15,727 nucleotides of DNA, from UHGV virus genome UHGV-0299427; one strand, given 5' to 3'. Below the pieces are notes generated by a model. It saw only the letters and a program-made list of their open reading frames with translations, did no database searches and had not been told where the DNA came from. The position numbers were made by a program, and so were the translations under genes. Shown piece after piece: positions 258 to 15,727 of this stretch (its first letter is position 1; the number at the start of each line of letters is the position of its first letter). Source of the stretch: a virus.

Positions 258-405
258 GATAGATTAGCGCAGGTACCTGTTGGTGGATTGCAGGAGGAAA
301 AATGAAGTCGAGTGGAAAAATCCCAGAAAAATTTTTGTTTAACAGAGGTCCTGGCTCACTATGCGAAATACGGAGGAGCTGCAGAAGAATTCTGCTTCAT
401 CCTTA
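258..405 (+). pseudogene. Degenerate, internally deleted copy of the hok-like locus (leader motif plus 33-codon ORF MKSSGKIPEKFLFNRGPGSLCEIRRSCRRILLHP, no transmembrane segment)
   Basis: By-eye alignment to the minus-strand hok locus: motif GATAGATTAGCGCA vs GATAGATTACGCGC (13/14), following leader 21/32 and 24/30 matches, and tcactatgcgaaatacggaggagct vs tcgctgtgtgaaatacggatgagct (21/25). About 150 bp spanning the hok SD, start and hydrophobic N-terminus are missing. Strong SD AGGAGG before ATG 302. Confidence 0.35.
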
Positions 406-495
406 GAGTTTAAACAGCACGTGCACTACCATTGTTTCTGCATATCGCCACACCATCGCCACTCAACCGCCATTGCACAAAATACAAATACGAAA

Positions 496-515
496 AAACC
501 ACCCGAAGGTGGTTT
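496..515 (-). terminator. Hairpin (AAACCACC cgaa GGTGGTTT) followed on the minus strand by a T-rich run; candidate rho-independent terminator for a leftward transcript
   Basis: Perfect 8-bp stem with 4-nt loop. The minus-strand downstream sequence is TTTTTCGTATTTG; on the plus strand it is not T-rich. Confidence 0.4.
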
Positions 516-536
516 CACGACACTGCTTATTGCTTT

Positions 537-1745: not shown

Positions 1746-2855
1746 TCACTCTGTTTCCGCTATCCATTCCGGGATTTTTGCCTCAAGCTCAAGCTGCGTG
1801 GTAAAACCGCTGTTATCAATGGTGTGCTCGGCTTTTGCAATGATCCAGTCCTTATTATCAATCTCGCTTTTAAATCCTGTTACCGTGCCATGCATTTCGG
1901 GGTAGAGTTCTGCACGTCCACGCGCCAGCGTGATGGAGAATGATGCGGCTCCGCGTTGTAGTTGCTGCCACTTTGCCGCCGCTGCGCGTCTTGCTGCCTG
2001 CTCGTTCTGATAAGTCTTGCGTAACACAAACACATTGCCTTCCGCGCCTTCCATATAATCACCTTCACGGCTGCTGCTTTTCTCCTTTTTGGGTTTTGGC
2101 GGTTTACGGCGTTTCACGCTGACTTTTTTCTTTTTCCCGTAATTAAGATCAAGCCAGTAGGCGCGTACCCCCGTATACGCCTCGCGGTCAGCAATGCGGA
2201 ACTGATGGCGATCGCCGCTGCTGCGTGTAATGGCGAACGAGGGCAACGGCTGGCCCTGTGCGTTCACGCCACCACCTGGCATGATGAATAACAGATTGCC
2301 GCTTTTTACCGTGGTGATTGCGCCCAGCATTTCCGCCATGCGCGTAAGGAAGGACATGTCGCTTTCTTCGGTCTGGTCGGCGTGGTCGATTTCGATATCC
2401 ATCAGCATTTCGCTGATTTGCGGTTTCAGACCATACCGATGAGCGATGGCGGATACCACACGCTCAACGGTCACATCATGCCAGGACACCTCACGTTTAA
2501 CGTTAAATTCATCCCGAAAATCTGCGCTTCTGGCTGAAACAGTCAGCCTGTCCGGCGGTCCTTCGTGAGCGATTTCATCAACAATGTAAGTGCCTTTTTC
2601 TGTCAGCGGTTCTCCTTTCCAGCCAATGAGAACCGTCAGGCGCGCGCCCCGTGGCGGTAGCTGCAACTGACCATCCGCATCATCCAGCGTGATGGTGAGC
2701 TGGTCCGCGTCAAATCCCCGGTTGTCGGTCAGTGACAGGCTCATCAGGCGCTCTGCCACGCCTGACAGCGTTTTACCCTCCGCGAGAATATCAAAATCCG
2801 GCATTTTTACGGGGTCTGTGCCCTGACTGAGCAATTGCATGGTGGTGTCGGTCAT
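1746..2855 (-). CDS. D: Late control / tail protein D (gpD-like), 369 aa
   Basis: Track ORF 1746..2987 trimmed to ATG 2855, which is preceded by SD GGGAGGGAG. Length and position next to ogr fit P2 gpD. Contains a Lys-rich linker. Confidence 0.85.
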   Translation of the reverse strand: MTDTTMQLLSQGTDPVKMPDFDILAEGKTLSGVAERLMSLSLTDNRGFDADQLTITLDDADGQLQLPPRGARLTVLIGWKGEPLTEKGTYIVDEIAHEGPPDRLTVSARSADFRDEFNVKREVSWHDVTVERVVSAIAHRYGLKPQISEMLMDIEIDHADQTEESDMSFLTRMAEMLGAITTVKSGNLLFIMPGGGVNAQGQPLPSFAITRSSGDRHQFRIADREAYTGVRAYWLDLNYGKKKKVSVKRRKPPKPKKEKSSSREGDYMEGAEGNVFVLRKTYQNEQAARRAAAAKWQQLQRGAASFSITLARGRAELYPEMHGTVTGFKSEIDNKDWIIAKAEHTIDNSGFTTQLELEAKIPEWIAETE

Positions 2856-3012
2856 CTGCTCCCTCCCTGTGCGGCATGGTCGCATGTGCGTGCGGAGGGG
2901 GTTACTGCTTTTTGTTGTCGCCGTGGCGGGAGAACGGCGCAGGGGTGAGATTACGCGCGTGGTGGGTGATGATTGTTGCCGAATCATTTAACGGATACAA
3001 GGGGCTGAAGCT
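2856..3012. promoter_or_regulatory. Divergent intergenic region between D (-) and FI (+); expected site of the FI late promoter and any promoter for D
   Basis: 157 bp between divergent start codons. Only imperfect Ogr-type dyads were seen by eye (for example TGT-N12-AGA at 2916-2933); no perfect TGT-N12-ACA. Confidence 0.3.
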
Positions 3013-4197
3013 ATGAGTGAAACTCGTTTTCATGGTGCCCGTGTTACGGAAAGTACCGACCTGGTAACAGCGATTAACGATGTTGATTCCAGCGTTATCG
3101 GTATCGTGGCAACGGCGGATGATGCGGACGCGAAGCTGTTCCCGCTGAACAAGCCCACACTGCTGACCCGCGTCAATGACGTGCTGGGAAAATGCGGGAC
3201 AACGGGGACGCTTTATCGTGCGCTTAAGGCCATCGCAGACCAGGTGAGCACAAAGGTGATCGTCGTTCGCGTGGCTGAACACAAAGAAGAAAACGGAAAG
3301 ACGCAGGATCAACTGGTTATCGGTGGTTCTGAATCTGACGGCAGCTATACGGGGATGTATGCGCTGCTTGTTGCAGAGCAGGATGAAAGCATCGGATACC
3401 GTCCGCGTATTCTGGCCGCGCCGGAGCTGGACACGGAGGCGGTGACAAAATCCCTGTGCGTGATTGCGGGTAAACTGCGCGCGTTTGTGTATGCCTCATG
3501 TCATGGCTGTAACACGATGGCAGAGGCAATTACCTACCGCCAGAAATTCAACGAACGTGAGGTGATGCTCTTATGGCCGGACTTCATCGCCTACAACCCG
3601 AAAAGTGGCAAAAACGAAACGTTCCCCGCGCCTGCTTATGCGTGCGGCCTTCGTGCGTACATTGACCATGAGCAGGGCTGGCACAAATCACTGTCCAACG
3701 TTCCGGTTAAAAATGTGCTGGGGATGTCCCGGCATGTGTTCTGGTCGTTGCAGGCCGAAGACAGCGATGCCAACAGCCTTAACAACAAAGAAATCACGAC
3801 CATTATTCGTCGTAACGGGTTCCGCTTCTGGGGCAACCGCACACCGGAAACGAACGCCTACATCTTTGAGGTGTATACCCGAACCGCACAGGTGCTGGCT
3901 GATTCAATTGCGGAAGCGCAGTTTGAAACCATCGACAGTCCACTGACGCCTGCGAACGTGAAGGATGTTATCAGTGCCATCAGGGCAAAACTGGATTCAC
4001 TGGTTACTGCCGGGAAACTGATTGGCGCGGAGTGCTGGTATGACGTGGTGGATAACAGCACCACGGGTTTACGTCAGGGACGTGTGCGTATTCGCTACAA
4101 ATATACGCCAGTTCCCCCGCTGGAAGACATGGAGCTTTACCAGTCGTTTACTGATGAATTCTTTGGTCCCGCATTTGCGGTGCTGGGAGGTGCCTGA
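3013..4197 (+). CDS. FI: Contractile tail sheath protein (gpFI-like), 394 aa
   Basis: Length and motifs (…ADDADAKLFPLNKP…, …FRFWGNRT…) match P2 FI. SD AAGGGG. The stop overlaps the FII start (TGATG). Confidence 0.9.
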   Translation: MSETRFHGARVTESTDLVTAINDVDSSVIGIVATADDADAKLFPLNKPTLLTRVNDVLGKCGTTGTLYRALKAIADQVSTKVIVVRVAEHKEENGKTQDQLVIGGSESDGSYTGMYALLVAEQDESIGYRPRILAAPELDTEAVTKSLCVIAGKLRAFVYASCHGCNTMAEAITYRQKFNEREVMLLWPDFIAYNPKSGKNETFPAPAYACGLRAYIDHEQGWHKSLSNVPVKNVLGMSRHVFWSLQAEDSDANSLNNKEITTIIRRNGFRFWGNRTPETNAYIFEVYTRTAQVLADSIAEAQFETIDSPLTPANVKDVISAIRAKLDSLVTAGKLIGAECWYDVVDNSTTGLRQGRVRIRYKYTPVPPLEDMELYQSFTDEFFGPAFAVLGGA

Positions 4198-4709
4198 TGG
4201 CTGTACCAAAACATCTTCGCTTTTTTACGCTGTTTGTGGATGGTGAAAACGAAGTGGGTAAGGTGACGTCCGTCACTCTGCCTAAACTGACGCGCAAAAC
4301 CGACAGCTACCGGGGTGGTGGCATGATGGGTGCGGTAAGTATTGATCTCGGTCTGGACGACTCCGCGCTTGATGCGAGCTTTGTCATGGGGGGCGCAGTT
4401 CGTGAGCTGTTCCTTAAGTATGGCGGCACGATTGACGGCACGCTGCTGCGTTTTGCGGGTGAATACTACACCGATGCAGAAAGCGACCTGTATGAAGTCG
4501 AAATGCGCGGACGTGTGACGGAAATTGATATGGGGGAAGCCAAACAGGGCGAAGCCACATCACACACTTACGCCATTAAAAACACCTACTACAAGCTGAG
4601 TGTTAACGATCGCCCGTTGTGGGAGATTGACCTGCTGAACTTCATTTACCGGAAGGACGGCAAGGACATTGTGCCTGACCGTATCCGTTCCGCGCTTGGG
4701 CTTGGCTGA
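4197..4709 (+). CDS. FII: Tail tube protein (gpFII-like), 170 aa
   Basis: Follows the sheath gene with start/stop overlap; size and sequence are typical of P2 FII. Confidence 0.9.
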   Translation: MAVPKHLRFFTLFVDGENEVGKVTSVTLPKLTRKTDSYRGGGMMGAVSIDLGLDDSALDASFVMGGAVRELFLKYGGTIDGTLLRFAGEYYTDAESDLYEVEMRGRVTEIDMGEAKQGEATSHTYAIKNTYYKLSVNDRPLWEIDLLNFIYRKDGKDIVPDRIRSALGLG

Positions 4710-4763
4710 TAAGTAATATGCAGGCGGCGCAGTGCGTCGCCTCTGACTGAAAGGAGTTTCCTG

Positions 4764-5129
4764 ATGAAAGAGACGAAAAACATCGATACCGAAAACACGG
4801 TAGTTACTGACACTGTGAAAGAAACCAGTGAGCGTGGCGTAAAACTTACCCAACCAATTGAGCGAGGCGGCGAAAAAATCACGTATGTGGAGATCACCGG
4901 AGCTATTGAGCAGGCTGGATCTCTGCGAGATTTGTCGTTGTCTGATGTGCTGAATCTGAAAGCGGAATCCATGTTTACGCTGCTGTCACGCGTGACATCA
5001 CCGCGACTGGATGAAGTGACGATCAAAAAAATGGCATCCCGTGACTTTATTCAGTTATGTGTGGTTGCCGTAAATTTTTTGAGCGGTGCGGACTCTGGCG
5101 GGAAGAACGAACAGGCGACGGAAGCCTGA
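4764..5129 (+). CDS. E: Tail assembly chaperone gpE (frame-0 product)
   Basis: Sits between the tube and tape-measure genes. SD AGGAG 8 nt upstream. Contains the slippery heptamer near its 3' end. Confidence 0.8.
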   Translation: MKETKNIDTENTVVTDTVKETSERGVKLTQPIERGGEKITYVEITGAIEQAGSLRDLSLSDVLNLKAESMFTLLSRVTSPRLDEVTIKKMASRDFIQLCVVAVNFLSGADSGGKNEQATEA

Positions 5130-5293
5130 TCACGGTTGTGTGCTTTGAGCACATAGAAGACTTTGTGGCAGATATTGCCGTTATTTTTAACTGGTCGCCC
5201 GCTGAAATCTTCATGATGACGCCCGGCGAAGTGGTTAGCTGGCGTGAGCGGGCGGCACTTCGCAGCGGGAATGCAGACAATGAAGACTCTTGA
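5075..5293 (+). CDS. E': E' extension: -1 frame continuation giving the E+E' fusion by programmed frameshift at T TTT TTG (5075-5081)
   Basis: Track ORF 5057..5293 is in the -1 frame relative to E. Slippery site TTTTTTG is identical to the P2 E/E' site. Its stop overlaps the T start. Confidence 0.7.
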   Translation, partial: FFERCGLWREERTGDGSLITVVCFEHIEDFVADIAVIFNWSPAEIFMMTPGEVVSWRERAALRSGNADNEDS

Positions 5294-8192
5294 TATCCGG
5301 GTCGCTTTCAGCGCCGTTGACAGGCTGACCCGGCCTGCCGAAAACGCCCGCCGCCTGATGGGGCAGTTTGGTGACTCCATCCAGCGAACGCAGGGGGCGA
5401 TCAAAAATCTCGAGCGTCAGGCGCGTTCATTTGAGCGCGCCCGTGACGCTGTCAGTAAAGCGGATGCTGGCATCGTGAAAGCACGACGCCAGCTTAACGC
5501 CCTTAATCAGTTACAACGCACGGGTACAGTGCTCAGCGAAAAACAACAAAAGCTGATGCAGCAGTTAAGCACCCGGCTTGAACGCCTGAATGAATCGCGC
5601 ACACGGGAAATTCAGAAAATGCGGGAGCTTGGCGGAGAGCTGAAACGCCACGGCATTTCCCTGACAGGCAGCGATAACACCATCCAGCAGGCCATCAGAC
5701 GCACCGAACAGTACAACAATCAGCTTGAACGCGAACGGCAGGCGCTTGCGCGTGTAACGCGTGCGCGTGAGCGGTATTCGCGCGCGCAGGAAACAGCAGG
5801 AAAACTGAAAACAGGTGGTGCGCTGGCAATTGGTGCGGCAGCGGCTGGCGGCTATGCTGCCGGGCGTTTTTTGCAGCCTGCGATCGGGTTCGGGAAAGAG
5901 ATGTCCCGCGTTCAGGCACTGACGCGAATCGACAAAAACAGCCTGCAGTTTAAGGCGCTGCGTGAGCAGGCGTTAAAACTTGGCTCTGAAACGCAGTTCA
6001 CCGCAGGCGATGCCGCCAGTGGGCAGGCATTTCTTGCAATGGCAGGCTTCACTCCGCAGGCCATTCAGGCTGCGCTTCCCGGCGTACTGAGCATGGCAAC
6101 GGCTGGCGGTATGGATCTCGGCGAGACGGCAGATATTGGCTCAAATATCCTGACGCAGTTCGGCCTTTCTGCTGACCAGATGGACCGGGTCGGAGACACA
6201 CTCACCGCAGCGTTTACCCGTACCAACACTGACCTTCGCGCACTGGGCGAAACCATGAAATATGCCGGTCCGGTGGCGGGTAAGCTGGGGATATCGCTGG
6301 AGCAGGCCGCAGCGATGGCGGGCGTGCTGGCGAATATGGGCATCAGAGGGAGTGATGCCGGGACGGCAATGCGTGCCAGCCTGGCTCGTCTGGCATCACC
6401 GCCAAAGGCGGCGGCAGAAGCTCTGAAAGAGCTGGGCGTGTCCGTCTCGGATGCCGGGGGCAAAATGCGCCCGATGGAAGATCTGCTGGCTGACCTTTAT
6501 AAAGCTACCCGCAAATACGGGGAAGTTGACCGGGTATCCTTCTTTAAGGACATCGCCGGGGAAGAGGCTTTCACATCGTTTATGGCACTCGTTGATGCGG
6601 CGGGTGACGGTTCCTTACCCAAACTGAGAAAAGAACTTGAGGGCGCACGCGGTGAGGCTGAACGCACGGCAAAGGTTATGGCCAACAACCTTGATGGCGA
6701 TCTGAAATCACTCGGCAGTGCATGGGAAGGGTTGCGCATCCGCATTGCAGATCTGATTGACGGTCCGCTGCGTTCTGTCACGCAGTGGCTCACGCGGGTG
6801 GTCTCAAAGGTGACGGCGCTGGCGCAGGCCCATCCGGTACTGACGCGCCAGTTACTGATAGCGGGAGGCGCACTGCTGGCGACAACAGCAACGGTTGGTT
6901 CGTTGTCTCTGGTTATTGGGGTGCTTCACGGGAAGCTGGCTACGTTACGTCTCGGTTTTTCTCTCCTGACAGGATCAATGAATGTCGTCAGGGTGCTGCC
7001 AGCACTATGGGGAATGGTAACAGGTTCCATCTCGTTGCTGGGTGGCGCTATCGGGGCGCTGTTCAGTCCGGTCGGATTGATTGTTGCCGCGTTTGTGGCT
7101 GCGGCAGTTCTCATCTGGAAATACTGGGAACCCATCAAGGCGTTTTATATCGGGGTGTTCAACGGGATTATGGAACGACTGGCTCCGTTGCGCGAAACCT
7201 TTGAACGGTTCGGTCCTGTTTTTGATGTCGTGCGCGATGGGATTATTCAGGTCTTTAACTGGTTTAAATCGCTGCTGTCACCGATGGAGTCCAGCAAGGA
7301 AACGCTGGATAAATGTACCAGTGCTGGCGAGATATTCGGTAACGTTCTTGGCGGTGCGTTACAGCTTGTTCTGACACCTGCAAAAATGCTACTGGATACG
7401 CTGGCGTGGATACTTGAAAAACTTGGCGTCCTTCCGGATGAAGCGGAAAGGGCGCGCAAGAAAATTGAAGACGCACAGCGTGCGGCCATTCTTCAGGACA
7501 AGGTTGCTCTGTTTCAGGGAGACATTGCGAAAATCAATCCGCCGAAGTCTGCGGAAAATGGCAATGGCACCGGAGGCGATAAACCCAAAGACAACAAACC
7601 GCTCACAGACAGCAATACCGGTACGCTACGCAGACTCAGCAAAATTGCTGATAACACAGGTAAGCTGGTTGATGAGACGAAAAAACGCATTGGCCCCGGT
7701 GATATTGTCTTTAAGAACCTGCCCCGCGCACTTGCCGTTCGTGGGGAGTGGCAGGAGCGGAAGATTGCGCAGGTCAGTAAGCCTGCCTCCGCAATTAATA
7801 TCACACCCGTGGTCCCTGCTCCGCTGCCTCTGGCGCTGGTCCCTGGTGGGGAGTGGCAGGAGCGGAAGATTGCGCAGGTCAGTAAGCCTGCCCCCGCAAT
7901 TAATACCACACCCGTGGTCCCGGCTCCGCTGCCTCCGGCGCTGGTCCCTGTTGTTGCGGCCAGCTCCCGCCCGGTGGCGGAGGCCATACGATCGCCAGTG
8001 GCATCAGTTCCTGTAACTTCCCGTAACCGGGAGCCTGTTGCCTCCGGATTTGGTGGTGAAATTCATGTTCATCTGCATAACGTTGTTACGCAGAATCCCC
8101 GCGAACTGGCGAAACTGGTCGGTGAAATGGTCAGGGCAGAAATGGAACGGCGCGCCCGTGCCGGGCGTGGCAGTTTTTACGATAAAGATTGA
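5280..8192 (+). CDS. T: Tail tape measure protein (gpT-like), about 970 aa; start codon uncertain (GTG 5244, ATG 5271 or ATG 5280)
   Basis: Long Ala/Gly/Leu-rich protein with coiled-coil-like N-terminus and hydrophobic segments, between E/E' and U. Contains a 105-bp in-frame tandem duplication. Confidence 0.9.
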   Translation: MKTLDIRVAFSAVDRLTRPAENARRLMGQFGDSIQRTQGAIKNLERQARSFERARDAVSKADAGIVKARRQLNALNQLQRTGTVLSEKQQKLMQQLSTRLERLNESRTREIQKMRELGGELKRHGISLTGSDNTIQQAIRRTEQYNNQLERERQALARVTRARERYSRAQETAGKLKTGGALAIGAAAAGGYAAGRFLQPAIGFGKEMSRVQALTRIDKNSLQFKALREQALKLGSETQFTAGDAASGQAFLAMAGFTPQAIQAALPGVLSMATAGGMDLGETADIGSNILTQFGLSADQMDRVGDTLTAAFTRTNTDLRALGETMKYAGPVAGKLGISLEQAAAMAGVLANMGIRGSDAGTAMRASLARLASPPKAAAEALKELGVSVSDAGGKMRPMEDLLADLYKATRKYGEVDRVSFFKDIAGEEAFTSFMALVDAAGDGSLPKLRKELEGARGEAERTAKVMANNLDGDLKSLGSAWEGLRIRIADLIDGPLRSVTQWLTRVVSKVTALAQAHPVLTRQLLIAGGALLATTATVGSLSLVIGVLHGKLATLRLGFSLLTGSMNVVRVLPALWGMVTGSISLLGGAIGALFSPVGLIVAAFVAAAVLIWKYWEPIKAFYIGVFNGIMERLAPLRETFERFGPVFDVVRDGIIQVFNWFKSLLSPMESSKETLDKCTSAGEIFGNVLGGALQLVLTPAKMLLDTLAWILEKLGVLPDEAERARKKIEDAQRAAILQDKVALFQGDIAKINPPKSAENGNGTGGDKPKDNKPLTDSNTGTLRRLSKIADNTGKLVDETKKRIGPGDIVFKNLPRALAVRGEWQERKIAQVSKPASAINITPVVPAPLPLALVPGGEWQERKIAQVSKPAPAINTTPVVPAPLPPALVPVVAASSRPVAEAIRSPVASVPVTSRNREPVASGFGGEIHVHLHNVVTQNPRELAKLVGEMVRAEMERRARAGRGSFYDKD
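7741..7950 (+). repeat. Two tandem copies of a 105-bp (35-codon) unit within the tape measure gene
   Basis: 7741-7845 and 7846-7950 differ at about 4 positions. Protein repeat is VRGEWQERKIAQVSKPA(S/P)AIN(I/T)TPVVPAPLP(L/P)ALVP. Confidence 0.85.
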
Positions 8193-8204
8193 GGAGTCAT
8201 GGCC

Positions 8205-8693
8205 ATGATGATGATCTACGGCATGTTTGTTTTTGAGCTGCGCACGTTGCCGCATCAGCAGTTACAGCAAAGCAAAAGCTGGCGGCATGTGAAAAATGAA
8301 CGCGTTAACCGTTCAGCAAGCTGGCAGTATATCGGTGCAGGTGATGATCGCATCGTGCTTTCAGGCGTGCTTTATCCTGAAATTACAGGTGGCGAAGTGT
8401 CGCTTTCGTTGCTGACCACGCAGGCATATACAGGACGCCCCTGGCCTCTGATTGATGGTGTCGGGCAGATTTACGGCATGTATGTCCTGACCGAAACGAA
8501 TACGACCCGTTCCGAGTTTGATCGCTACGGTAAGGCGAAAAAGATAGAATTTTCACTGACCCTTGAACGCTGTGATGAGGATTTGCGGGAGCGCCTGCAA
8601 TCCTCATCGTTCAGTGATATGCTGTCCGGCTTCAAAGATAAGGTCACATCATCCCTTAACAGCGCGGCCAGCTCCGTTAAAGGGCTGTTTTGA
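8205..8693 (+). CDS. U: Tail protein gpU-like (about 162 aa); start at ATG 8205 preferred over 8199
   Basis: Follows T with SD GAGGAG; size and position fit P2 U. ATG 8199 is only 2 nt from the SD, 8205 is 8 nt. Confidence 0.85.
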   Translation: MMMIYGMFVFELRTLPHQQLQQSKSWRHVKNERVNRSASWQYIGAGDDRIVLSGVLYPEITGGEVSLSLLTTQAYTGRPWPLIDGVGQIYGMYVLTETNTTRSEFDRYGKAKKIEFSLTLERCDEDLRERLQSSSFSDMLSGFKDKVTSSLNSAASSVKGLF

Positions 8694-8700
8694 TTAACGC

Positions 8701-8730
8701 AAAACCGCTAATGGTCAGATTAGCGGTTTT
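8701..8730. terminator. Perfect 12-bp-stem hairpin (AAAACCGCTAAT ggtcag ATTAGCGGTTTT) between convergent U and invertase genes; bidirectional terminator candidate
   Basis: Seen directly. T-run follows on the plus strand. The invertase stop codon (8720-8722) lies inside the stem. Confidence 0.6.
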
Positions 8731-9319
8731 CATTTTCCTGAGTCTGCCTGGTTGTTGCTTCAGCCTGTATATCGCCTACAGGGTGATAACGATAAATCGT
8801 CGATATGCCGATGTCGTAAATGATCGCCAGTTGTTTCCTGTCATGACCGTTTTTAATCAGCCTTGCTATTTGCTCGTGTTGTTCTTTTGTCAACTTCGGG
8901 CGACGTCCGCCAATGCGTCCTTGTGCGCGTGCTGCTGCCAGCCCGGCCAGTGTACGTTCTACAATTAATTCACGTTCCATTTCGGCTAAAGCCCCCATGA
9001 CGTGAAAAAAGAAACGCCCCATGGGTGTTGACGTGTCAATGCTGTCCGTCAGACTACGGAAATTAACACCTTTTTCCCGCAATTCCTCAATAAGCGTGAT
9101 CAGGTGTTTCATACTTCTGCCCAGTCTGTCCAGCTTCCAGACAACCAGCGTATCTCCTTCTGATAGCGTTCTGAGCAGTTTTTTCAATCCCGGTCTGGTT
9201 GATTTCGTTCCGCTGATTTTATCTTCAAAAATCAGTTCACATCCTGCGCAGTTCAGTGCATTGCGTTGTAAATCCGTGTTCTGGTCGTTTGTTGACACAC
9301 GAATATAGCCAATTTGCAT
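8720..9319 (-). CDS. Serine-recombinase DNA invertase (Hin/Gin/Cin/Pin, Din family), 199 aa
   Basis: MQIGYIRVSTNDQNTDLQ… with catalytic Ser motif and C-terminal HTH (…AIIYDIGISTIYRY…). Track ORF trimmed to ATG 9319 with SD AAGAGGA. Adjacent to the invertible tail fibre segment. Confidence 0.9.
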   Translation of the reverse strand: MQIGYIRVSTNDQNTDLQRNALNCAGCELIFEDKISGTKSTRPGLKKLLRTLSEGDTLVVWKLDRLGRSMKHLITLIEELREKGVNFRSLTDSIDTSTPMGRFFFHVMGALAEMERELIVERTLAGLAAARAQGRIGGRRPKLTKEQHEQIARLIKNGHDRKQLAIIYDIGISTIYRYHPVGDIQAEATTRQTQENENR

Positions 9320-9373
9320 AAAAAACATCCTCTTTGTTTCGTGAAAAATACAGAGTTGGTATAGGTAGGGATA

Positions 9374-9399
9374 AAAACGAAAACGTTGGTTTGGGAGAA
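9374..9399. other. Left crossover site of the invertible segment (reverse complement TTCTCCCAAACC AA CGTTTTCGTTTT)
   Basis: Shares the 15-nt core TTGGTTTGGGAGAAG (9386-9400) in inverted orientation with 11209-11223. Resembles recalled gix/cix/hix half-site architecture (AAACC-NN-GGTTT). Confidence 0.6.
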
Positions 9400-9738
9400 G
9401 CGGCAAAAAGGAATGTGGGGACAGGGACGAATCAGATACCTGATATGGGTAGCTTCACGCTTTCTGTTTCAGGTACTGGATATCAAAAATTACCATCTGG
9501 TTTTATTCTTCAGTGGGGCTCAATCGGCGCACCAAGCATTGCACAGGATGTGGTAACCCATTTTCCGATTGCATTTCCAAACAGATGTCTGCGTGTTTTG
9601 GTCTCACAAGACTACACACCAGATAGCGGGGCTGTTGGTTATATTGCCTGTGCAGGTTTTAGTTCCGACCCGGTTAAATTTATATCCAGAGCCAGTACTC
9701 CTGGCCTCGGCGCTTCATTTTTAGCGTTAGGCTGTTAA
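9386..9738 (+). CDS. Alternative tail fibre C-terminal segment (Hv'), silent in this orientation; no start codon of its own
   Basis: Reading frame is continuous with the shared core (…VGLGEAAK…), which matches the …LGLGEGS… junction in H. Would fuse to the H constant region after inversion. Track ORF 9334..9738 begins at an incidental ATG. Confidence 0.6.
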
Positions 9739-9760
9739 TTTAGCTATATGGAGTGAAAAA

Positions 9761-10201
9761 ATGAATTACATATATTCCGCGACGACAAACTCTTTCTATC
9801 CCTTGGAGATGAAAGAGGATTACACACAAGCTGACTCATGGCCAGATGATGCTGTTGAAGTTGATGAGCAAGTGTATATTGAGTTTTCCGGATTACCGCC
9901 GAAAGGAAAAATCCGTATCGCTGGAGAAAATGGTTTTCCTGCATGGTCTGAAATTCCACCACCAACACATGAGGAACAGATTGCTGCAGCCGAACAGGAA
10001 AAGCAGCAACTGATTAATCAGGCCAACGATTATATGAACAGTAAACAATGGCCTGGTAAAGCGGCTATTGGTCGTCTGAAAGGTGAGGAACTGGCGCAAT
10101 ATAATTTGTGGCTGGATTATCTGGACGCACTGGAACTGGTCGATACTTCCGGTGCGCCAGATATTGAATGGCCTACGCCTCCGGCAGTTCAGGCCAGATG
10201 A
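9761..10201 (+). CDS. Tail fibre assembly protein (tfa', alternative copy), 146 aa
   Basis: C-terminal …DTSGAPDIEWP… motif homologous to the minus-strand tfa C-terminus. SD GGAGTG. Convergent 29-nt overlap with tfa. Confidence 0.8.
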   Translation: MNYIYSATTNSFYPLEMKEDYTQADSWPDDAVEVDEQVYIEFSGLPPKGKIRIAGENGFPAWSEIPPPTHEEQIAAAEQEKQQLINQANDYMNSKQWPGKAAIGRLKGEELAQYNLWLDYLDALELVDTSGAPDIEWPTPPAVQAR

Positions 10202-10766
10202 CATCCGGCGCGGTGCTGGTATCTGTTGTCGTCACCGCGTCAATGTAATCAAGCACGGCGTTAAGCCGGGTGGTTTCTGCCTGCGTCAGCTTCCGCCCGG
10301 CCTGTAATTTCAGCTGAATCAGACTGATGGAAGCCATTGCAGCATCAATCAGTGACTGGCGCTGTGCTTCTGCCGCTTCTACTGCGGCACCGTGTTGTGC
10401 CTCAGTATCTGTCACCCATTTCTCACCATCCCATTTATCATATGGCGTTAACGGTGAAAGCGTGACATAACCGTTTTTGATGGCACCGATATAATCCACT
10501 GTAACAGCAGCACCATTTTCGATTGAGTAAACAGTCTCATTGCGATGGTCTTCTTCATGGCTCCATCCCTTACCTGTAAATACTGCCACTCTTCCCGGAA
10601 TGTTTTCGCCAGGGTCAATACCAGTGGAACAGGCGGGCATACTTACGCCAGTATTAATATATTCATCAGACCAGCCCGTATACTCAGATGTTTCAGCATC
10701 ATAATAAAAACAACGCATATCGCCCGGCACTGTAGCCAGCCCATTTTCATCAAAAACAGGTTTCAT
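10173..10766 (-). CDS. Tail fibre assembly protein (tfa, expressed copy; gpG-equivalent), 197 aa
   Basis: Start overlaps the H stop (TAATG). C-terminal …DTSTAPDVIWP… motif. Confidence 0.85.
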   Translation of the reverse strand: MKPVFDENGLATVPGDMRCFYYDAETSEYTGWSDEYINTGVSMPACSTGIDPGENIPGRVAVFTGKGWSHEEDHRNETVYSIENGAAVTVDYIGAIKNGYVTLSPLTPYDKWDGEKWVTDTEAQHGAAVEAAEAQRQSLIDAAMASISLIQLKLQAGRKLTQAETTRLNAVLDYIDAVTTTDTSTAPDVIWPELPEA

Positions 10767-12301
10767 TATTTAGCCCTCACCAGAAAGTTAAATGCAATAT
10801 TTCGCGGTCTGACAGCAACAAAATTCACACCATCACCCAAAGAGTTACTGGTGAAATTAAATCGTGAAAATCCTGGCTGATTTCCGGCGATGCCATCATG
10901 AAAATTAATTGCGTGTCCCGCACCTCCGCCTATATTCCCGGCAAACTGAGAAAAGTTTGTAGCTGCCTGCCAGCTTAATAATTTGCGACCACCGTCTGCA
11001 CCTCGCCCGTCATCCCAGATACGAATGAAATCACCGCGGGCTTCAGGTAATACCAGCGAAGGAAACACTTTTGCCAGCACAGGGTAATCAGAGGCAGAAA
11101 ATTTCGCCCCGTTGAACTTCAAAAACACCATACTGGACCAGCTTTTGATTACGGTATCTGGCATTGCGGCGGACGGCCAGAAGAACGGAACGCCAATAGC
11201 TGGAGAACCTTCTCCCAAACCAAGGTAATTGAGGACATCTTTTATACTGCCCTTAGCGATAATAGCGCGACCAATAGCTGTAAGGGTTGCCAGCGCTGCG
11301 CGGTCTGCTCCGGTAAAATAAGGCAACCGATCTGCTGCAGTGACAAGTCCTGCCAGAGCAGTGAGCGTGGCATCTGCCGGTTGTTTTCCGTTTGCCAGAT
11401 CGTATGCAGCCTTGACCGCTTTCGGTGTGGCGGCCAGTATTTCAGACGTGCTGTTGATGGCACTGCTCAATTGTACGGTGCCTTTTGCCGTCAGCGAGGC
11501 AGCAGGCACTCCCGTTATCTGACTCCACGGGTGAGTGTGGCTGACGGGTGCCTTGCCAGCTGCAAGGTCGTATGCAGCCTTGACGGCTTTTGGTGTGGCG
11601 GCCAGCGTTTCAGAGGTGCTGTTGGTGGCACTGCTCAGTTGTACGATCCCTTTACGGGTCGTTGTTGCATCCTGGGCTGTGTATTTTCCCCGGGCCAGAT
11701 CATACGCGATTTTCACAGCCTTCGGCGTGGCAGCCTCAGTTTCTGATTGACTGTCCGTGGCGCTGCTAAGTTGAACAAAGCCTTTTGCGGTCAGCGAGGC
11801 GTCCGGGTGACGTCGTGACTGCTCGTGCTTTGAGATTTTATCATCCACATATTTGCGGGTTGCCAGAACCACAGACGGGTCGATTTTCAGCGTGATGGCT
11901 TTGGTGTTCGTGACAACCAGAATCATGCGGATAGTCTGGGTGCGTCCACTGCCTTCCTGCAACTGCGGTTTGTACGTTTCCGGGCAGTTTGCCACCGCAA
12001 TGAGTACACCTTTATCATCATAAAGACCAATCTCACGGATCCAGAATCCTCCCTCGTCTTCAGGGATGATTTGCTCCGCAATAATCTGGCTCTGATTGTT
12101 AGGGTCAACACTCAGAAGATTCAGCGGTGCAATGCGTTTCTGGTTAATCAGTTTTGTTTGTGCAGGGTTTGGTGTTGGTAACACACCATTTGCATCACCA
12201 ACGGCCATTTGCGTCAGATTCAGCTTACTGCCGAGCATCGTCGCGTTAGCCAGTCGTGCCGCGCCCTGATTAGTCAGAATGGCGTAGTATTTCATTGTCA
12301 T
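10766..12301 (-). CDS. H: Tail fibre protein (gpH-like), 511 aa; constant N-terminal part about residues 1-364 and a variable C-terminal part inside the invertible segment
   Basis: N-terminus …MAVGDANGV… is P2 H-like. Three internal about 35-aa fibre repeats. Crossover core lies at codons about 360-364. Confidence 0.9.
   Translation of the reverse strand: MTMKYYAILTNQGAARLANATMLGSKLNLTQMAVGDANGVLPTPNPAQTKLINQKRIAPLNLLSVDPNNQSQIIAEQIIPEDEGGFWIREIGLYDDKGVLIAVANCPETYKPQLQEGSGRTQTIRMILVVTNTKAITLKIDPSVVLATRKYVDDKISKHEQSRRHPDASLTAKGFVQLSSATDSQSETEAATPKAVKIAYDLARGKYTAQDATTTRKGIVQLSSATNSTSETLAATPKAVKAAYDLAAGKAPVSHTHPWSQITGVPAASLTAKGTVQLSSAINSTSEILAATPKAVKAAYDLANGKQPADATLTALAGLVTAADRLPYFTGADRAALATLTAIGRAIIAKGSIKDVLNYLGLGEGSPAIGVPFFWPSAAMPDTVIKSWSSMVFLKFNGAKFSASDYPVLAKVFPSLVLPEARGDFIRIWDDGRGADGGRKLLSWQAATNFSQFAGNIGGGAGHAINFHDGIAGNQPGFSRFNFTSNSLGDGVNFVAVRPRNIAFNFLVRAK
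11210..11235. other. Right crossover site of the invertible segment (TTCTCCCAAACC AA GGTAATTGAGGA), inside gene H
   Basis: Core 11209-11223 is the exact reverse complement of 9386-9400. Confidence 0.6.
11384..11806. repeat. Three imperfect intragenic repeats in H (phage tail fibre repeat, (A/R)KG(F/I/T)VQLSSA…ATPKAVK(A/I)AYDLA)
   Basis: Protein repeats start at residues 172, 216 and 272 (spacing 132 and 168 bp). They also generate the spurious plus-strand ORFs at 11381-11750. Confidence 0.7.
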
Positions 12302-12906
12302 GCGTTTACTCTCAGATTATCAATTAAATGAATGGCCGGGGCAGGGAAATAATCCCCTTCGACAATAATGGACTCCGGGGTGTAGGGGTAAACCGTCAGG
12401 GCATCGCCGTGATAGCATCCCGTACCAACGAAAATCTTTCCGTTCACACTCAGACTGATCGCCAGCCCTGTCAGATGGCGACTTACTGGTTTTGCATCCG
12501 CAATAAGGCGTTCAAGTTCCTGATGCATTTCATCGGTGATGCCCTGATCAAGTACTCCGACAACAATGCGAAATGTCCCAGGCTCCTCATTGAGTTGCCA
12601 CCACTCCTTTACTTCAATCAGGTAGCCGAGAGGCTCCACGGCTCTTCGCAGTGCGCTGATGGTCCCTTTGTGTCGGTGTATCAGCCATGCATCACGAATC
12701 ACCTGTCGCTTTGTCTCTTCCGGCCAGTTGCGATCCCAGCGGTCAACGGAAAACGCCCAGGCGAGATAAGGCAGCAGATGCACCGGGCAGGTGTCCGGCG
12801 ACCACAACGTGTTGAGGTCTACCGGAATGTCTGTAATGCGTGTTCCGACGGCTTCGGCACAACGCATGAAATTGCTGGCTGATGGGGGTAACAACGAATT
12901 ACTCAT
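12298..12906 (-). CDS. I: Baseplate assembly protein I (gpI-like), about 202 aa
   Basis: Track ORF trimmed to ATG 12906, which overlaps the J stop. Its stop overlaps the H start (ATGA). Confidence 0.85.
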   Translation of the reverse strand: MSNSLLPPSASNFMRCAEAVGTRITDIPVDLNTLWSPDTCPVHLLPYLAWAFSVDRWDRNWPEETKRQVIRDAWLIHRHKGTISALRRAVEPLGYLIEVKEWWQLNEEPGTFRIVVGVLDQGITDEMHQELERLIADAKPVSRHLTGLAISLSVNGKIFVGTGCYHGDALTVYPYTPESIIVEGDYFPAPAIHLIDNLRVNA

Positions 12907-13795
12907 TGCGTCCACCTTCGCTGATGGTGAATGACTCACAGCGCGCCGCCTGTATGTCGCTGATGGCCATATTCTGTGTGGGTTCGATTATCTCCACGCG
13001 TTGCACACCGTGCACATGCAGTGCGGCAGCAATGGCGGACAACGCCACGTCCTGACCGATAAGCCCCTGCTCAGCCAGCCACTTCCTGAACGACGATTCA
13101 GCCGCGGCCAGAATAGGTTCGGATTCCGGGCCGGGGTAAAAGTACAGTTTTGCATTCAGCCGCCATGTCACGATTCTGGCGCTCTGTACGGTCAGGCGGT
13201 CGGCCACCGGGCGGGTATCCTCTGCATTCAGAGTGGCGCGAACGGTATTAAGCAACGCCTCCGTTGCTGTGCCGTCGCCTTCAGTGGACAGAATGGAAAC
13301 CGTCACGTTGGCCGGAGACGGGCTGATGGCTCGCGCGTCGCGTACCAGACCGCTGGCGCTGCGTGCAAAATACTCGTATGCGCCTGACGGGCCAGCAACA
13401 CTCAGACCGTCATACGCCCGTTGCGCCCGCAGTCTCAGCGATGTGTCGCTTTCCATCACCGCGTCGGTGGTATCCGTTGCCGGAGTGATAACCAGGCGCT
13501 TTGTGTTCATATTGCCCGCGAGGTTGTCCAGGTCTGTCCCGGCGCTGTGGCTTAACATGCAGGCGCGTGCACCCTCATTGACCCGCTGGCGTAACAGCAT
13601 TTCACGAAACGCTGTTGTCTGGGCGATAACGTTCAGGGGTTCTGATTCCAGCTCCAGCGCGGCGGAGACGGCTTCACGCTGTTCGGCAGGATAGGACGCA
13701 ATCATCATGGCCTTTGTGTCAGCCAGAATTGCCTCAAAATCAGGCTTCGCGATGATGGCGGGTTCCGGTAACTGGGAAAGGTCAACAGCAGGCAT
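12899..13795 (-). CDS. J: Baseplate assembly protein J (gpJ-like), 298 aa
   Basis: Size and position between W and I; typical translational coupling. Confidence 0.9.
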   Translation of the reverse strand: MPAVDLSQLPEPAIIAKPDFEAILADTKAMMIASYPAEQREAVSAALELESEPLNVIAQTTAFREMLLRQRVNEGARACMLSHSAGTDLDNLAGNMNTKRLVITPATDTTDAVMESDTSLRLRAQRAYDGLSVAGPSGAYEYFARSASGLVRDARAISPSPANVTVSILSTEGDGTATEALLNTVRATLNAEDTRPVADRLTVQSARIVTWRLNAKLYFYPGPESEPILAAAESSFRKWLAEQGLIGQDVALSAIAAALHVHGVQRVEIIEPTQNMAISDIQAARCESFTISEGGRNE

Positions 13796-13798
13796 GAT

Positions 13799-14149
13799 TT
13801 ACTCCCTCAGCGTGATGGTTAACTCAACATTCTGCATGGTCTGCATGACAGTGCCCGACAGCGTCACCCCGGCGCGGCCTCCTGCCTTCCAGACAACGTC
13901 GATGGCGTCCAGGGCAATGCGGGGTTCCCATCGTGTCAGCGCAATCACGGCAGCACTCATGCATTGCAGACGCGTGGTGTTATTCATGGGTTCGTCAATC
14001 AAATCAGGTACAAGGCTGCCATATTCCCGTCGCATAACCCGGCTGGCCAGCGGGGTGGTCAGGATGTCCCTGGCTGACTGTTTCAGGTGCTCCATATCAT
14101 TCAGGTTTCCCGTCCCGTCCGGATTCATTCCTGTGTAGCGGGTTGTCAC
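13799..14149 (-). CDS. W: Baseplate wedge protein W (gpW / gp25-like), 116 aa
   Basis: Size and position; start overlaps the V stop. Confidence 0.85.
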   Translation of the reverse strand: MTTRYTGMNPDGTGNLNDMEHLKQSARDILTTPLASRVMRREYGSLVPDLIDEPMNNTTRLQCMSAAVIALTRWEPRIALDAIDVVWKAGGRAGVTLSGTVMQTMQNVELTITLRE

Positions 14150-14727
14150 TGCGGGCCTCCTGTCGAATCGCTGCCGCCTTTCACACCACCGTGTTTATGC
14201 GTATGCACTGTGATGCCGTTTGAGGTGAAATCGCCGCCGCTGTGCGTGATATTGCCGCTCATCTTTCCCCCTTTTGTGACGTCAAGCGTCGCTGTTCTCA
14301 GAAGGTTTGTGCATTCCACGACGGGCGTGTCCAGTGTCACGCTGACGGATGCCTGCAGGGTGGCTGTTTTCATGCCGCTGGCGCTCAGTGCGCCAGCGTC
14401 TGCGTCGTAGCGGAACACCGCGCCATCCGGCGCGCTGACCACGATTTCTTTCAGGCTTTTGCCGGGGGCCGGACTGGCATCACTCCACAGGCTGCCAATT
14501 ATCATGGCGGTTTCCGGGTTGCCGCCAATGCAGGCAATTACCACCTGTTCGCCTGGTGATGGCGGCAGCCACACATTGAAGGCTCCCGCGCGCGTGGTGT
14601 TCCAGCGCAACCAGCCTGTTTCCAGTTCGCCGCTGCGAACGCGCACGCGCCAGGACTTCTCATCAACTTCAGAGATGATCCCGGTGCGGATGATGTTGCT
14701 CAGCAGTCGCATGAGTTCTGCGCTCAC
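14146..14727 (-). CDS. V: Baseplate spike / assembly protein V (gpV-like), 193 aa
   Basis: …IRTGII…EQV…GG…DGA…SG(M/I)KTA…TLDTP(V)VECTN…KGG(K/T)M(S/R)GNI(T/E)H(S/T)GG…SNGI(T)VHTHKH… matches recalled P2 V. Confidence 0.85.
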   Translation of the reverse strand: MSAELMRLLSNIIRTGIISEVDEKSWRVRVRSGELETGWLRWNTTRAGAFNVWLPPSPGEQVVIACIGGNPETAMIIGSLWSDASPAPGKSLKEIVVSAPDGAVFRYDADAGALSASGMKTATLQASVSVTLDTPVVECTNLLRTATLDVTKGGKMSGNITHSGGDFTSNGITVHTHKHGGVKGGSDSTGGPQ

Positions 14728-15359
14728 CGTACAGCCTCCGCAATCCGGCCCAGCACCGTGTTATAAATCAGGCGCTCATCTGCCTGGCTGATACCCAGCA
14801 GCTCACGTACCGGGTAATCGGTGAAAATGCCCGGCGCAACCTGATCGCGCTCACCGAACTGATGAACGCGTGCAATACGTGCGGCCACGCCGCTGTAACC
14901 CACCGTCACACCGGAAGCATCTGCACGGGCTTTCAGGTAGCGGGCGGTGCGCAGTTTTACGAACATGGGGACGCGCCTGGTGCTGTCCTGGTTGATGCGC
15001 CGGGTGCGTATTTCCAGAAAACGGTCGATGTCATCCCGGTAAAACGTGCGGATATTGTTTTTATCCTCATCCCACCCGGTAATGGTTCGCCCGTATTTCC
15101 CCGTGTCGTGATGCCAGTTTTTCAGCGTGCGTGCTTCGTTATTCCAGATAAAGCGAATACGTTCCTGTATCCGGGTTACGCGGCGTCTGCGTGGTGTCCA
15201 TGCGGTCCCGTCCGGCGCTTTCTGTGACCGGATACGCGCCTGCTGGGCGCGGCGTAAATCCTGTGCCAGCTTTCTGGCGATGTTATTGATGGCCTGCTGA
15301 TTCAGGCTGTCGCGGATGGCCTCAAAGGTTTCATCCACGCGGGTGAATGCCTTATCCAT
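14724..15359 (-). CDS. S: Tail completion / virion morphogenesis protein (gpS-like), about 211 aa; start at ATG 15359 preferred over GTG 15368
   Basis: Position immediately upstream of V, overlapping the R-like stop. Assignment is by synteny and general family resemblance only. Confidence 0.6.
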   Translation of the reverse strand: MDKAFTRVDETFEAIRDSLNQQAINNIARKLAQDLRRAQQARIRSQKAPDGTAWTPRRRRVTRIQERIRFIWNNEARTLKNWHHDTGKYGRTITGWDEDKNNIRTFYRDDIDRFLEIRTRRINQDSTRRVPMFVKLRTARYLKARADASGVTVGYSGVAARIARVHQFGERDQVAPGIFTDYPVRELLGISQADERLIYNTVLGRIAEAVR

Positions 15360-15727
15360 CGCTTTCACCCCACGTCACATCCTGGAATACATGCGACCAG
15401 TCGCCTTCGGAAGAGGGCAGACGGGGTTTTGGCTCCTGCAGGTGTTCTGCCTGCGGTGTCCCCTGACTGTTGCGCGTAATGCGAACGCGTTCCCGCAGGG
15501 GGAGCGTAAACAGGAGATCGGCGCTGTCATCGTCATTGATAACGGCGGAGAATTTGATGTCCTGATTACGCTCAGGGTTGAGCAACAACTGTGGCTGATT
15601 TTCGGATAACCACGCCAGCAGCGGCAGCGTGAGGTCGTCCAGCTCTCCGGCGTAATCCATGACAAACATCACCATCTGATAGCGGTAAACAAACGAGGGC
15701 GTTTCCCCGGTCGTTTCAATGTTGCCG
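15352..15727 (-). CDS. R: Probable tail completion protein (gpR-like), N-terminus outside the window
   Basis: The frame stays open from the window edge (15727) down to the stop at 15352. Call is by synteny upstream of S-like and V. Confidence 0.45.
   Translation of the reverse strand, partial: GNIETTGETPSFVYRYQMVMFVMDYAGELDDLTLPLLAWLSENQPQLLLNPERNQDIKFSAVINDDDSADLLFTLPLRERVRITRNSQGTPQAEHLQEPKPRLPSSEGDWSHVFQDVTWGESDG

Follow-up and report, generated by a model that had tools for sequence, protein, structure and literature searches.

Does the tail-fibre region of UHGV-0299427 (15,727 nt, referred to here as the window) carry a working DNA inversion switch, and does inversion give the phage an alternative fibre tip together with its own chaperone? 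Our analysis found the invertible segment at 9374-11235, where a preliminary description of the window had placed it, with 1,836 bp inverted per flip. The tail-fibre operon here belongs to a P2-like E. coli prophage (Peduoviridae, Gemsvirus-type), and the locus within it is very probably a functional site-specific inversion switch of the Din family (Pin/Gin/Cin/Hin-type). The Din-type switch and its occurrence in P2-like E. coli prophages are already established, and no new question is raised here on either count. The features of the locus, in window coordinates, are as follows.

8720-9319, minus strand: serine DNA invertase of 199 aa, Pin/Gin/Cin type (Pfam Resolvase 2.4e-51, HTH_7 1.4e-12)
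9230-9301, no strand: candidate Fis-dependent recombinational enhancer, nt 19-90 of the invertase gene, collinear with the annotated P1 cin enhancer
9374-9399, no strand: left 26-bp site L, AAAACGAAAACG TT GGTTTGGGAGAA, centre 9386-9387, invertase-proximal
9388-9738, plus strand: Hv', silent alternative C-terminal cassette without its own start, 116 aa from the common GLGE
9761-10201, plus strand: tfa', silent chaperone for fibre assembly, the partner of Hv', 146 aa (Pfam Caudo_TAP 1.2e-38)
10173-10766, minus strand: tfa, chaperone now downstream of H, 197 aa (Pfam Caudo_TAP 1.2e-26)
10766-11221, minus strand: Hv, C-terminal 151 aa of H and in-frame tip in the present orientation, part of the 511-aa reading frame
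10766-12301, minus strand: H tail fibre, 511 aa, a continuous reading frame through site R
11012-11037, no strand: quasi-site Q inside Hv, ATCCCAGATACG AA TGAAATCACCGC, inversion partner of site L in related prophages
11210-11235, no strand: right 26-bp site R, TTCTCCCAAACC AA GGTAATTGAGGA, centre 11222-11223, inside H and coding ...NYLGLGE...
11222-12301, minus strand: Hc, constant N-terminal part of H (residues 1 to ~360), outside the segment (Pfam Phage_tail_fib, Phage_fiber_2 repeats)

The two inverted 26-bp sites with a common 15-nt core, as first described, lie exactly at 9374-9399 and 11210-11235. Both have the 12-2-12 layout, with AA (TT on the other strand) as the core and identical inner half-sites, the reverse complement of site L being TTCTCCCAAACC AA CGTTTTCGTTTT. 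A repeat search gave an inverted repeat at 9383-9400/11209-11226 with 17 of 18 positions matching, its perfect part being 15 nt (9386-9400/11209-11223), and the window has exactly two copies of the 14-mer TTCTCCCAAACCAA, inverted relative to each other. Comparing the 26-mers directly showed poor identity between outer and inner half-sites (5/12 at L and 7/12 at R), and in e14 the outer half-site of the pin-proximal pix site is likewise a poor match to the inner one. When the sites were compared with those of known systems, site L matched the pin-proximal e14 pix site at 20/26 positions, both sites matched e14 pix at 20-21/26 and cix at 17-20/26, and site R matched the 5' crossover site of EC958 Phi2 at 25/26 (PMC4134206 Table 3). 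Homology to unrelated prophages with the same cassette stops at window 11226-11232. The 15-nt repeat alone was not significant, with at least one perfect 15-nt inverted repeat in 64 of 200 dinucleotide shuffles, and for this reason the repeat by itself was dropped as evidence; its significance derives from its position, the reading frame, the likeness to sites of known systems and the existence of flipped copies in other assemblies. A scan of the window for extra canonical sites (multi-site shufflon as in p15B/EPEC, up to 3 mismatches) returned only L, R and a chance match at 4525. One further, unrelated 15-nt inverted pair is present within the window.

The gene content (ORFs, Pfam) bore out the proposed arrangement, in which Hv and tfa are the expressed pair, Hv' and tfa' are silent and the invertase gene lies just outside. 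The ORF map and Pfam assignments give the fibre architecture of the Mu G, P1 C and e14 P switches, with a constant N-terminus outside the segment and, inside it, two mirror-image, in-frame C-termini, each paired with its own Tfa-type chaperone. Phage_tail_fib covers residues 1-150 of Hc, and the 511-aa native and 476-aa flipped forms of H have the same N-terminus. Hv is 41% identical to e14 StfE and approximately 91% identical at the DNA level to side tail fibres of the lambdoid phages mEp213/mEp043; it also weakly matched the T4 gp37 tip (2xgf, E 0.008), with a similar C-terminal motif, NIAFN-[YF]-[IL]-VR. Hv' is read through the site in the same frame as H, matched Pfam Gp53-like_C (5.9e-16) and, weakly, AP22 gp53 (4mtm, 8e-4) and R2/R1 pyocin fibres (6ct8, 6cl6, 6cxb; 2e-3 to 1e-2), and is 29% identical to the e14 StfP C-terminus. 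BLASTP found no similarity between Hv (151 aa) and Hv' (116 aa). The two tips belong to different families, Hv being StfE/gp37-like and Hv' Gp53-like_C/R-pyocin-foot-like; the PDB sequence searches for both tips gave weak matches only (E ~1e-3 to 1e-2). This agrees with the earlier view that the silent pair is shorter than and unlike the expressed one (116/146 against 151/197 aa), and its guess that the tips differ is matched by their assignment to separate families.

The start of tfa overlaps the stop of H (TAATG), and tfa is 63.5% identical to e14 TfaE while tfa' is 60% identical to TfaP. The two chaperone genes overlap tail-to-tail by 29 bp, an overlap also present in e14 and at the EPEC locus. 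Another route to inversion, by recombination of tfa with tfa', was considered and rejected: the two are 37.5% identical over the C-terminal 72 residues only, and no such junctions were seen.

The invertase gene starts 55 bp outside site L and reads away from the segment. Its product matched PHROG 125 'DNA invertase' (7e-99), the Gin structures 4m6f/3uj3 (E 3e-91 over residues 1-182) and, through its C-terminal DNA-binding domain, the Hin structure 1hcr (E 1.5e-11), and is 82.5% identical to PinE of e14, 76% to Gin of Mu and 74% to Cin. Relative to Gin, the catalytic Ser9 and Arg7, DRLGR, His106 and Met114 are unchanged. As judged from its sequence, the protein is a full-length, intact Din-family serine invertase, wild type at catalytic and regulatory positions, as expected of the Din-type enzyme originally proposed. 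A simple sigma-70 consensus scan between the gene start and site L found no invertase promoter. Within the gene, nt 19-90 are 72-86% identical to the corresponding part of related genes (cin 78%, pinE 86%) against 64-68% for the rest, and G-N13-C motifs at 9284-9298 and 9235-9249, 49 bp apart, are common to pinE and gin. Third-position identity in this region is only modestly higher, and the coding sequence there is conserved anyway. The signal is not separable from coding constraint, and 9230-9301 is a candidate enhancer.

The enzyme acting on the segment might not be its neighbour. Din invertases (Gin, Cin, Pin, Hin) cross-complement, and inversion could be driven mainly in trans by another such enzyme present in the host cell (PinE, PinQ, PinR or that of a Mu-/P1-like element), a reading that is compatible with the local switch and that we consider unlikely. 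The inner half-site and core here are identical to those of e14 pix, Phi4 of EC958 inverts despite a truncated invertase of its own (PMC4134206), and the e14 P segment is inverted by PinQ of Qin (PMC12529663). Against a predominant role in trans, the adjacent invertase is full length with wild-type catalytic and regulatory positions, and unrelated prophages have invertase and cassette together as a single module, with homology over window 8776-11232.

The inversion itself was followed in public assemblies. Flipping the segment in silico at the central AA/TT dinucleotide gave an in-frame Hc-Hv' fusion, H', of 476 aa, in keeping with the initial proposal that inversion swaps the H tip and its chaperone, and full-length matches to H' were present in public E. 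coli assemblies: P0013 and P0014, both 476 aa and ending in Hv', are tabulated at 100% identity and 100% coverage, and P0016 and P0018 at 99%. P0014 was found on seven contigs, of which six loci from six different samples were fetched (L005-L010). In all six, window 8000-9400 and 11209-13000 align on one strand (99.5-100% identity) and window 9383-11223 on the opposite strand (99.4-99.95%), the change of strand is located within the 15-nt core, and tfa' lies directly downstream of the fused H'. A junction census of the fetched loci gave the native junction pair in the window, L001, L015-L020, L022 and L023, and the flipped pair in L005-L010; the cut contigs L021 and L024 hold the R junction only. 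Among complete genomes, two were fully native, two had flipped chromosomes and one carried an inversion between L and the quasi-site Q. Both orientations thus occur naturally, in assemblies other than the source strain, and the flipped state always gives an intact, in-frame H'.

It could be argued that the locus is a frozen relic, with no switching in the source strain now (through weak invertase expression or degenerate outer half-sites) and with orientation differences that are rare or old. The promoter scan and the degenerate outer half-sites are in its favour, no single sample among those returned held both orientations, and the invertase of the relative L020 is interrupted by an IS element, indicating that locking does occur. 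We nevertheless regard this as very unlikely: the invertase reading frame is intact and retains all catalytic residues, homologous cassettes invert at measurable rates in culture (PMC4272514, PMC4134206), and the flanks of native and flipped copies differ by no more than 0.5%, the two kinds turning up in roughly equal numbers of independent assemblies. Near-identical flanks and roughly equal counts fit frequent switching and not a single old event.

A third state, produced by inversion between L and Q, was found in five fetched loci (L004, L025-L028). Q is intact in the window and matches the canonical sites at only 11-13/26 positions, but has the AA core in common with them. The reciprocal junctions L-outer/TT/Q and L-inner/AA/Q (AAAACGAAAACGTTCGTATCTGGGAT and TTCTCCCAAACCAATGAAATCACCGC) were recovered from L004 and L025-L027 with zero bases gained or lost, and L028, which is cut, has one of the two. 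The exchange is both conservative and reciprocal and lies precisely at the central dinucleotide, with the exact crossover at the TT of site L seen in L004. L004 and the native locus L001 have the same protein accessions for the invertase, the two chaperones and the neighbouring tail genes, and differ in the state of the segment. The product of the L-by-Q inversion is an in-frame hybrid fibre of 642 aa (P0008), in which Hc is followed by the initial 66 residues of Hv and then by Hv', and is carried on 12 contigs from prophages that differ in neighbouring alleles. That the invertase uses Q to create a third heritable state with a hybrid fibre, beyond the two canonical states, is advanced here only as a rather doubtful possibility.

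These junctions also bear on whether RecA-dependent homologous recombination between the short inverted repeats, or faulty assembly, could account for the orientation differences. The locus does have a perfect 15-nt inverted repeat, repeats of this kind can arise by chance, and short-read assemblers can mis-orient segments between repeats. However, 15 bp is too short for efficient RecA recombination, and the L-by-Q product is perfectly reciprocal and conservative although only the 2-bp core is common to its partners at the exchange point. The flipped state is also found both in six independent assemblies and in complete genomes from long reads, with H' intact and in frame in every flipped case. 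The probability of such an origin is close to negligible, and site-specific inversion remains the preferred reading.

Of the known systems, the e14 P segment of E. coli K-12 (pix, stfP/tfaP, tfaE/stfE) has the closest invertase, PinE, and its pix inner half-site and core, TTCTCCCAAACC AA, are identical to those of the sites here. It has the same layout of tip, chaperone, inverted chaperone and inverted tip, followed by an invertase reading away, and a segment of ~1.8 kb; the cassettes are homologous, with tips diverged from those here. The lambdoid element e14 is defective and its fibre gene truncated, in contrast to the complete P2-type tail operon and full-length H of the window, and the invertase here has a 15-aa C-terminal extension that PinE does not. 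The P2-like prophages of EC958 (Phi2) and EPEC E2348/69 represent the same phage type with the switch at the same position in H, although their tip combinations differ from those of the window. Inversion of homologous cassettes was demonstrated by PacBio in the EC958 prophage (PMC4134206) and has been reported in that of EPEC E2348/69 (PMC4272514 Table S1), both segments being present in two orientations within cultures (PMC4134206, PMC4272514). The 5' site of EC958 Phi2 is one base off site R (PMC4134206 Table 3), but the Phi2 sites lie within 227-bp imperfect repeats, whereas the repeat here measures no more than 15-18 bp. At the EPEC locus (2977580-2979467) the core reads TTG(G)TTTGGGAGAAG (PMC4272514 Table S1), and the gp53-like/tfa' module shows 86.8% identity to window 8889-10454; overall identity of the EPEC invertase is only 70%. 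The sheath gene of the EPEC remnant follows in the same direction, whereas the FI-U block of the window lies on the opposite strand.

Mu G/Gin and P1 C/Cin employ the same enzyme family and 26-bp 12-2-12 sites and follow the same logic, and in P1 the enhancer is annotated within the 5' part of cin. They differ from the window in the gix core (GA/TC against AA/TT), in their larger segments (3 kb in Mu and 4.2 kb in P1), in S/U tips that are unrelated to Hv/Hv', with weak C-terminal similarity of the chaperones only, and, in P1, in a cin gene that reads towards the segment instead of away from it. Salmonella Hin belongs to the same recombinase family and has the same mechanism, with hix sites and a Fis-dependent enhancer inside the recombinase gene. 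The Hin/H segment flips a promoter and contains hin, whereas coding 3' ends are exchanged here and the invertase lies outside.

A complete P2-type morphogenesis set surrounds the switch. Unlike in P2, the FI-U block is on the strand opposite to H-V and D/ogr; an anomalous large inversion of this block was discounted, as phage 500465-2 (genus Gemsvirus) and other prophages have the same layout, and because of this the arrangement is a lineage trait. This setting is relevant to a further reading, in which the switch mainly serves the lysogen, one orientation yielding a fragment or fusion of the fibre that would cover a surface receptor and keep superinfecting phages out. In the homologous e14 cassette, StfE2 is reported to block T2 after PinQ-driven inversion (PMC12529663), and the similarity of Hv to StfE and of tfa to TfaE noted above is in line with such a role. 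We judge it highly improbable here, since e14 does not have the complete morphogenesis set of the window and H lies inside the late baseplate/fibre operon, with no indication of expression in the lysogenic state. The late baseplate/fibre operon of P2 is silent in lysogens, and H would accordingly be expected to be expressed only as part of that late operon.

Under the preferred reading of a working inversion switch, dimers of the serine invertase (8720-9319) would bind both 26-bp sites, which would synapse on supercoiled DNA with a Fis-bound enhancer in the 5' end of the invertase gene, by analogy with Gin, Hin and Cin. Both sites would be cut at the central AA/TT dinucleotide, and one half-site pair turned through 180 degrees before religation. 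In the present orientation H consists of Hc (residues 1-360) and the 151-aa StfE/gp37-like Hv, followed by the chaperone tfa, and in the inverted orientation of Hc and the 116-aa gp53/R-pyocin-foot-like Hv' (476 aa in total), followed by tfa'. With two alternative tips and chaperones, lysogen populations would give off particles of either one receptor specificity or the other.

The existence of two states explains three recurring annotation artefacts: a stand-alone 'gp53-like domain-containing protein' called across the left site, tail-fibre proteins of unequal length for the same prophage, and rearranged copies flagged as pseudogenes. If the hybrid fibre is functional and has arisen more than once, the switch would also act as a natural means of shuffling domains, by which fibres are lengthened or re-architected, beyond its role as a two-state toggle. 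The different families of the two tips give indirect support to a difference in adsorption specificity between the orientations, and two receptor specificities from one lysogen would be relevant to the prediction of prophage host range and to the borrowing of such fibres for phage or tailocin retargeting.

The window comprises the tail region of a P2-like E. coli prophage. Over the queried stretch 8700-12400 it shares 99.4% identity with a prophage of E. coli O15:H18 ST69 (NZ_CP102488), and its gene order is shared with Escherichia phage 500465-2 (Peduoviridae, genus Gemsvirus). The features are as follows:

1746-2987, minus strand: D
3013-8693, plus strand: FI, FII, E, T and U
8720-9319, minus strand: invertase gene
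9374-9399: left crossover site L (26-mer), reverse complement TTCTCCCAAACC AA CGTTTTCGTTTT
9388-9738, plus strand: Hv', the silent C-terminal tip
9761-10201, plus strand: tfa', chaperone gene paired with Hv'
10173-10766, minus strand: tfa, chaperone gene paired with the expressed tip Hv
10766-12301, minus strand: tail-fibre gene H
11012-11037, inside Hv: quasi-site, ATCCCAGATACG AA TGAAATCACCGC
11210-11235: right crossover site R (26-mer), reading TTCTCCCAAACC AA GGTAATTGAGGA and encoding ...NYLGLGE...
Minus strand: I, J, W and V

The sheath-tube-E-T-U block (3013-8693) lies on the strand opposite to D/ogr (1746-2987) and the V-W-J-I-H operon (10766-15368). P2 itself lacks this opposite-strand block, whereas phage 500465-2 and the other E. 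coli prophages examined have the same layout, which is therefore a lineage trait and not a window-specific rearrangement. Elsewhere, a 126-nt perfect inverted repeat (1-126 / 537-662) begins at window base 1, and window 1-536 corresponds, in reverse complement and at 90% identity, to upstream sequence adjoining tRNA-Leu in a related complete genome; either the contig has been folded back at its end (126 = k-1 for k = 127), or the prophage end has undergone a true inversion of 410 bp. Where the U and invertase genes converge, window 8701-8730 can form a hairpin (perfect 12-bp stem, 6-nt loop) with T-rich sequence after it. The terminator scan flagged this hairpin on the plus strand only; it is a likely terminator and, with T-rich sequence at both sides, may act two-way.

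The repeat search of the window returned an inverted repeat (9383-9400 / 11209-11226) with a perfect stretch of 15 nt (9386-9400 / 11209-11223), in agreement with the shared core reported in the preliminary description, whose outer coordinates proved to be the exact ends of the L and R 26-mers (9374 and 11235). The 14-mer of inner half-site plus core occurs twice in the window, inverted, and only at L and R. However, of 200 dinucleotide shuffles of the sequence, 64 contained at least one perfect 15-nt inverted repeat, and one further, unrelated 15-nt pair is present in the window; such a repeat alone is thus not improbable, and the case for a switch rests on all the other evidence.

The reading frame of H (511 aa in the present orientation, its stop overlapping the tfa start) crosses site R, and Hv' is open in that frame across site L. 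In-silico flipping of 9388-11221 gave an uninterrupted 476-aa fusion, H', consisting of residues 1-360 of the constant N-terminal part and 116 aa of Hv', followed by tfa'. This fits the assignment of Hv and tfa as the expressed pair and of Hv' and tfa' as the silent one, Hv' being joined only after the flip. The two pairs were also said to be dissimilar, and this holds: no similarity was detectable between Hv and Hv', and the chaperones have only the C-terminal ~70 residues in common (37.5% identity). In ORF calls and PGAP annotation, Hv' appears as a separate 'gp53-like domain-containing protein' (9334-9738), with a TTG start upstream of the left crossover site and read-through across it; this call is an artefact, produced by a C-terminal cassette that has no promoter. 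The tfa' and tfa genes overlap tail to tail on opposite strands by 29 bp (10173-10201), as they do in e14 (tfaP/tfaE) and the EPEC E2348/69 locus.

An invertase gene had been placed just outside the segment, and the ORF there (8720-9319) encodes a 199-aa protein with Resolvase and HTH_7 domains that aligns end to end with crystallised Mu Gin (E 3e-91); identities are 82.5% to PinE of e14, 76% to Gin and 74% to Cin. It retains the nucleophilic Ser9, Arg7 and the DRLGR motif, and His106 and Met114, the positions at which mutation makes Gin or Hin Fis-independent, are wild-type. The annotated enhancer of P1 cin has a collinear counterpart in nucleotides 19-90 of the invertase gene (9230-9301), a stretch that is conserved above the rest of the gene and includes two G-N13-C motifs common to pinE and gin; it fits a candidate Fis-dependent enhancer, with conservation inseparable from coding constraint. 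Inversion is presumably Fis-dependent and would be expected to occur at some rate in the source strain, and other resident invertases may help.

Flipping was tested by searching public sequences, rather than reads, for the predicted product H'. The search returned E. coli proteins of 476 aa, of which P0013 and P0014 are tabulated with 100% for both identity and coverage, and P0016 and P0018 with 99%. Seven contigs carry P0014, and six of these loci, each from a different sample, were fetched (L005-L010). In them one strand aligns with window 8000-9400 and 11209-13000 (99.5-100%) and the opposite strand with 9383-11223 (99.4-99.95%), which places the strand switch inside the 15-nt core. The window's own 511-aa H was present on 16 contigs in native arrangement. 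Across all fetched loci, the native junction pair was found in the window, L001, L015-L020, L022 and L023, the flipped pair in L005-L010, and just the R junction in L021 and L024, where contigs end early; among complete genomes, two are fully native and the flipped R junction occurs in two chromosomes. Both orientations thus exist in nature, bearing out the claim that inversion swaps the C-terminus of H together with its chaperone. Length polymorphisms between near-identical prophages were also seen in H (511 aa, against 611 aa in L001, with the extra 300 bp falling in the Phage_fiber_2 repeats at 11400-11800), correspondingly in the flipped-state fibre (476 versus 576 aa), and in the tape measure (5244-8192; a 982-aa ORF, whereas in relatives the product is called at 1005, 970 and 935 aa).

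A third state was found in L004 (strain S1-CHI-01-A), whose invertase, two chaperones and neighbouring tail proteins have the same accessions as those of L001 but whose segment state differs, being neither native nor canonically flipped. Its junctions (L004 3160-3225 and 4785-4850) read AAAACGAAAACG-TT-CGTATCTGGGAT and TTCTCCCAAACC-AA-TGAAATCACCGC, so that site L and the quasi-site have recombined in a conservative and reciprocal inversion, exchanged exactly at the central dinucleotide (TT/AA). Agreement of the quasi-site with the real sites is limited to 11-13 of 26 positions, with the AA core in common; for Cin, the use of quasi-sites chosen by their central dinucleotide is documented (Iida and Hiestand-Nauer 1987, cited in PMC4134206). 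The product encodes an in-frame 642-aa hybrid fibre (P0008; 12 contigs), and its junctions were confirmed in L025-L028 (one of the two in L028, a cut contig); PGAP calls pieces of this locus pseudogenes. Quasi-site use here fixes the crossover point independently, and it excludes both homologous recombination and misassembly as the origin of the rearrangements.

Of the known systems, the P segment of e14 with its invertase PinE is the closest; its inner half-site and core are identical to those of the window (whole pix sites, 20-21/26), with the same gene layout and chaperone-gene overlap. Site R and the EC958 Phi2 crossover site are distinguished by a single base (PMC4134206 Table 3), and alternative PacBio contigs were reported for EC958 prophages Phi1, Phi2 and Phi4 (Forde et al. 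2014, PMC4134206). Coexisting orientations have been quantified in e14 (51% forward) and at two P2-like prophage loci of EPEC E2348/69 (Goldberg et al. 2014, PMC4272514 Table S1), where one locus is 86.8% identical to window 8889-10454 with the same core, and a systematic survey of gene-altering inversions found tail-fibre genes to be a major class (PMC9881135). The switch type has already been shown experimentally in P2-like prophages, and the window locus is an ordinary, known system. The observation is confirmed and its interpretation supported: in its sites, reading frames, enzyme, exchange point and two natural orientations, the locus has the sequence features of a Din-type tail-fibre switch, the enhancer being a candidate.

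Homology to otherwise unrelated prophages and phages begins and ends at the sites (matches span 8776-11232 or 9381-11226), which indicates that invertase and cassette move as a unit. In a metagenomic relative (L020 8983-10347), an insertion sequence (HTH_Tnp_1 transposase) cuts the invertase after 80 residues, and its segment would be locked in the native state unless another invertase acts in trans. Masking of a receptor to the lysogen's benefit, which has been reported for PinQ and e14 (PMC12529663), is an unlikely role for inversion here, since the window prophage has a complete late operon. Hv shares 41% identity with e14 StfE, ~91% DNA identity with side tail fibres of lambdoid phages mEp213 and mEp043, and a weak match (E 0.008) to the T4 gp37 tip (2xgf) with a similar C-terminal motif, NIAFN-[YF]-[IL]-VR, whereas Hv' is a Pfam Gp53-like_C domain (5.9e-16) weakly matching AP22 gp53 and the R1/R2 pyocin fibre foot domains; tfa resembles TfaE (63.5%) and tfa' TfaP (60%). 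These family matches, StfE/gp37-like against Gp53-like_C/R-pyocin-foot-like, place the two specificities on structurally different tips, which supports the earlier guess of markedly different specificities; inversion would be expected to change host range.
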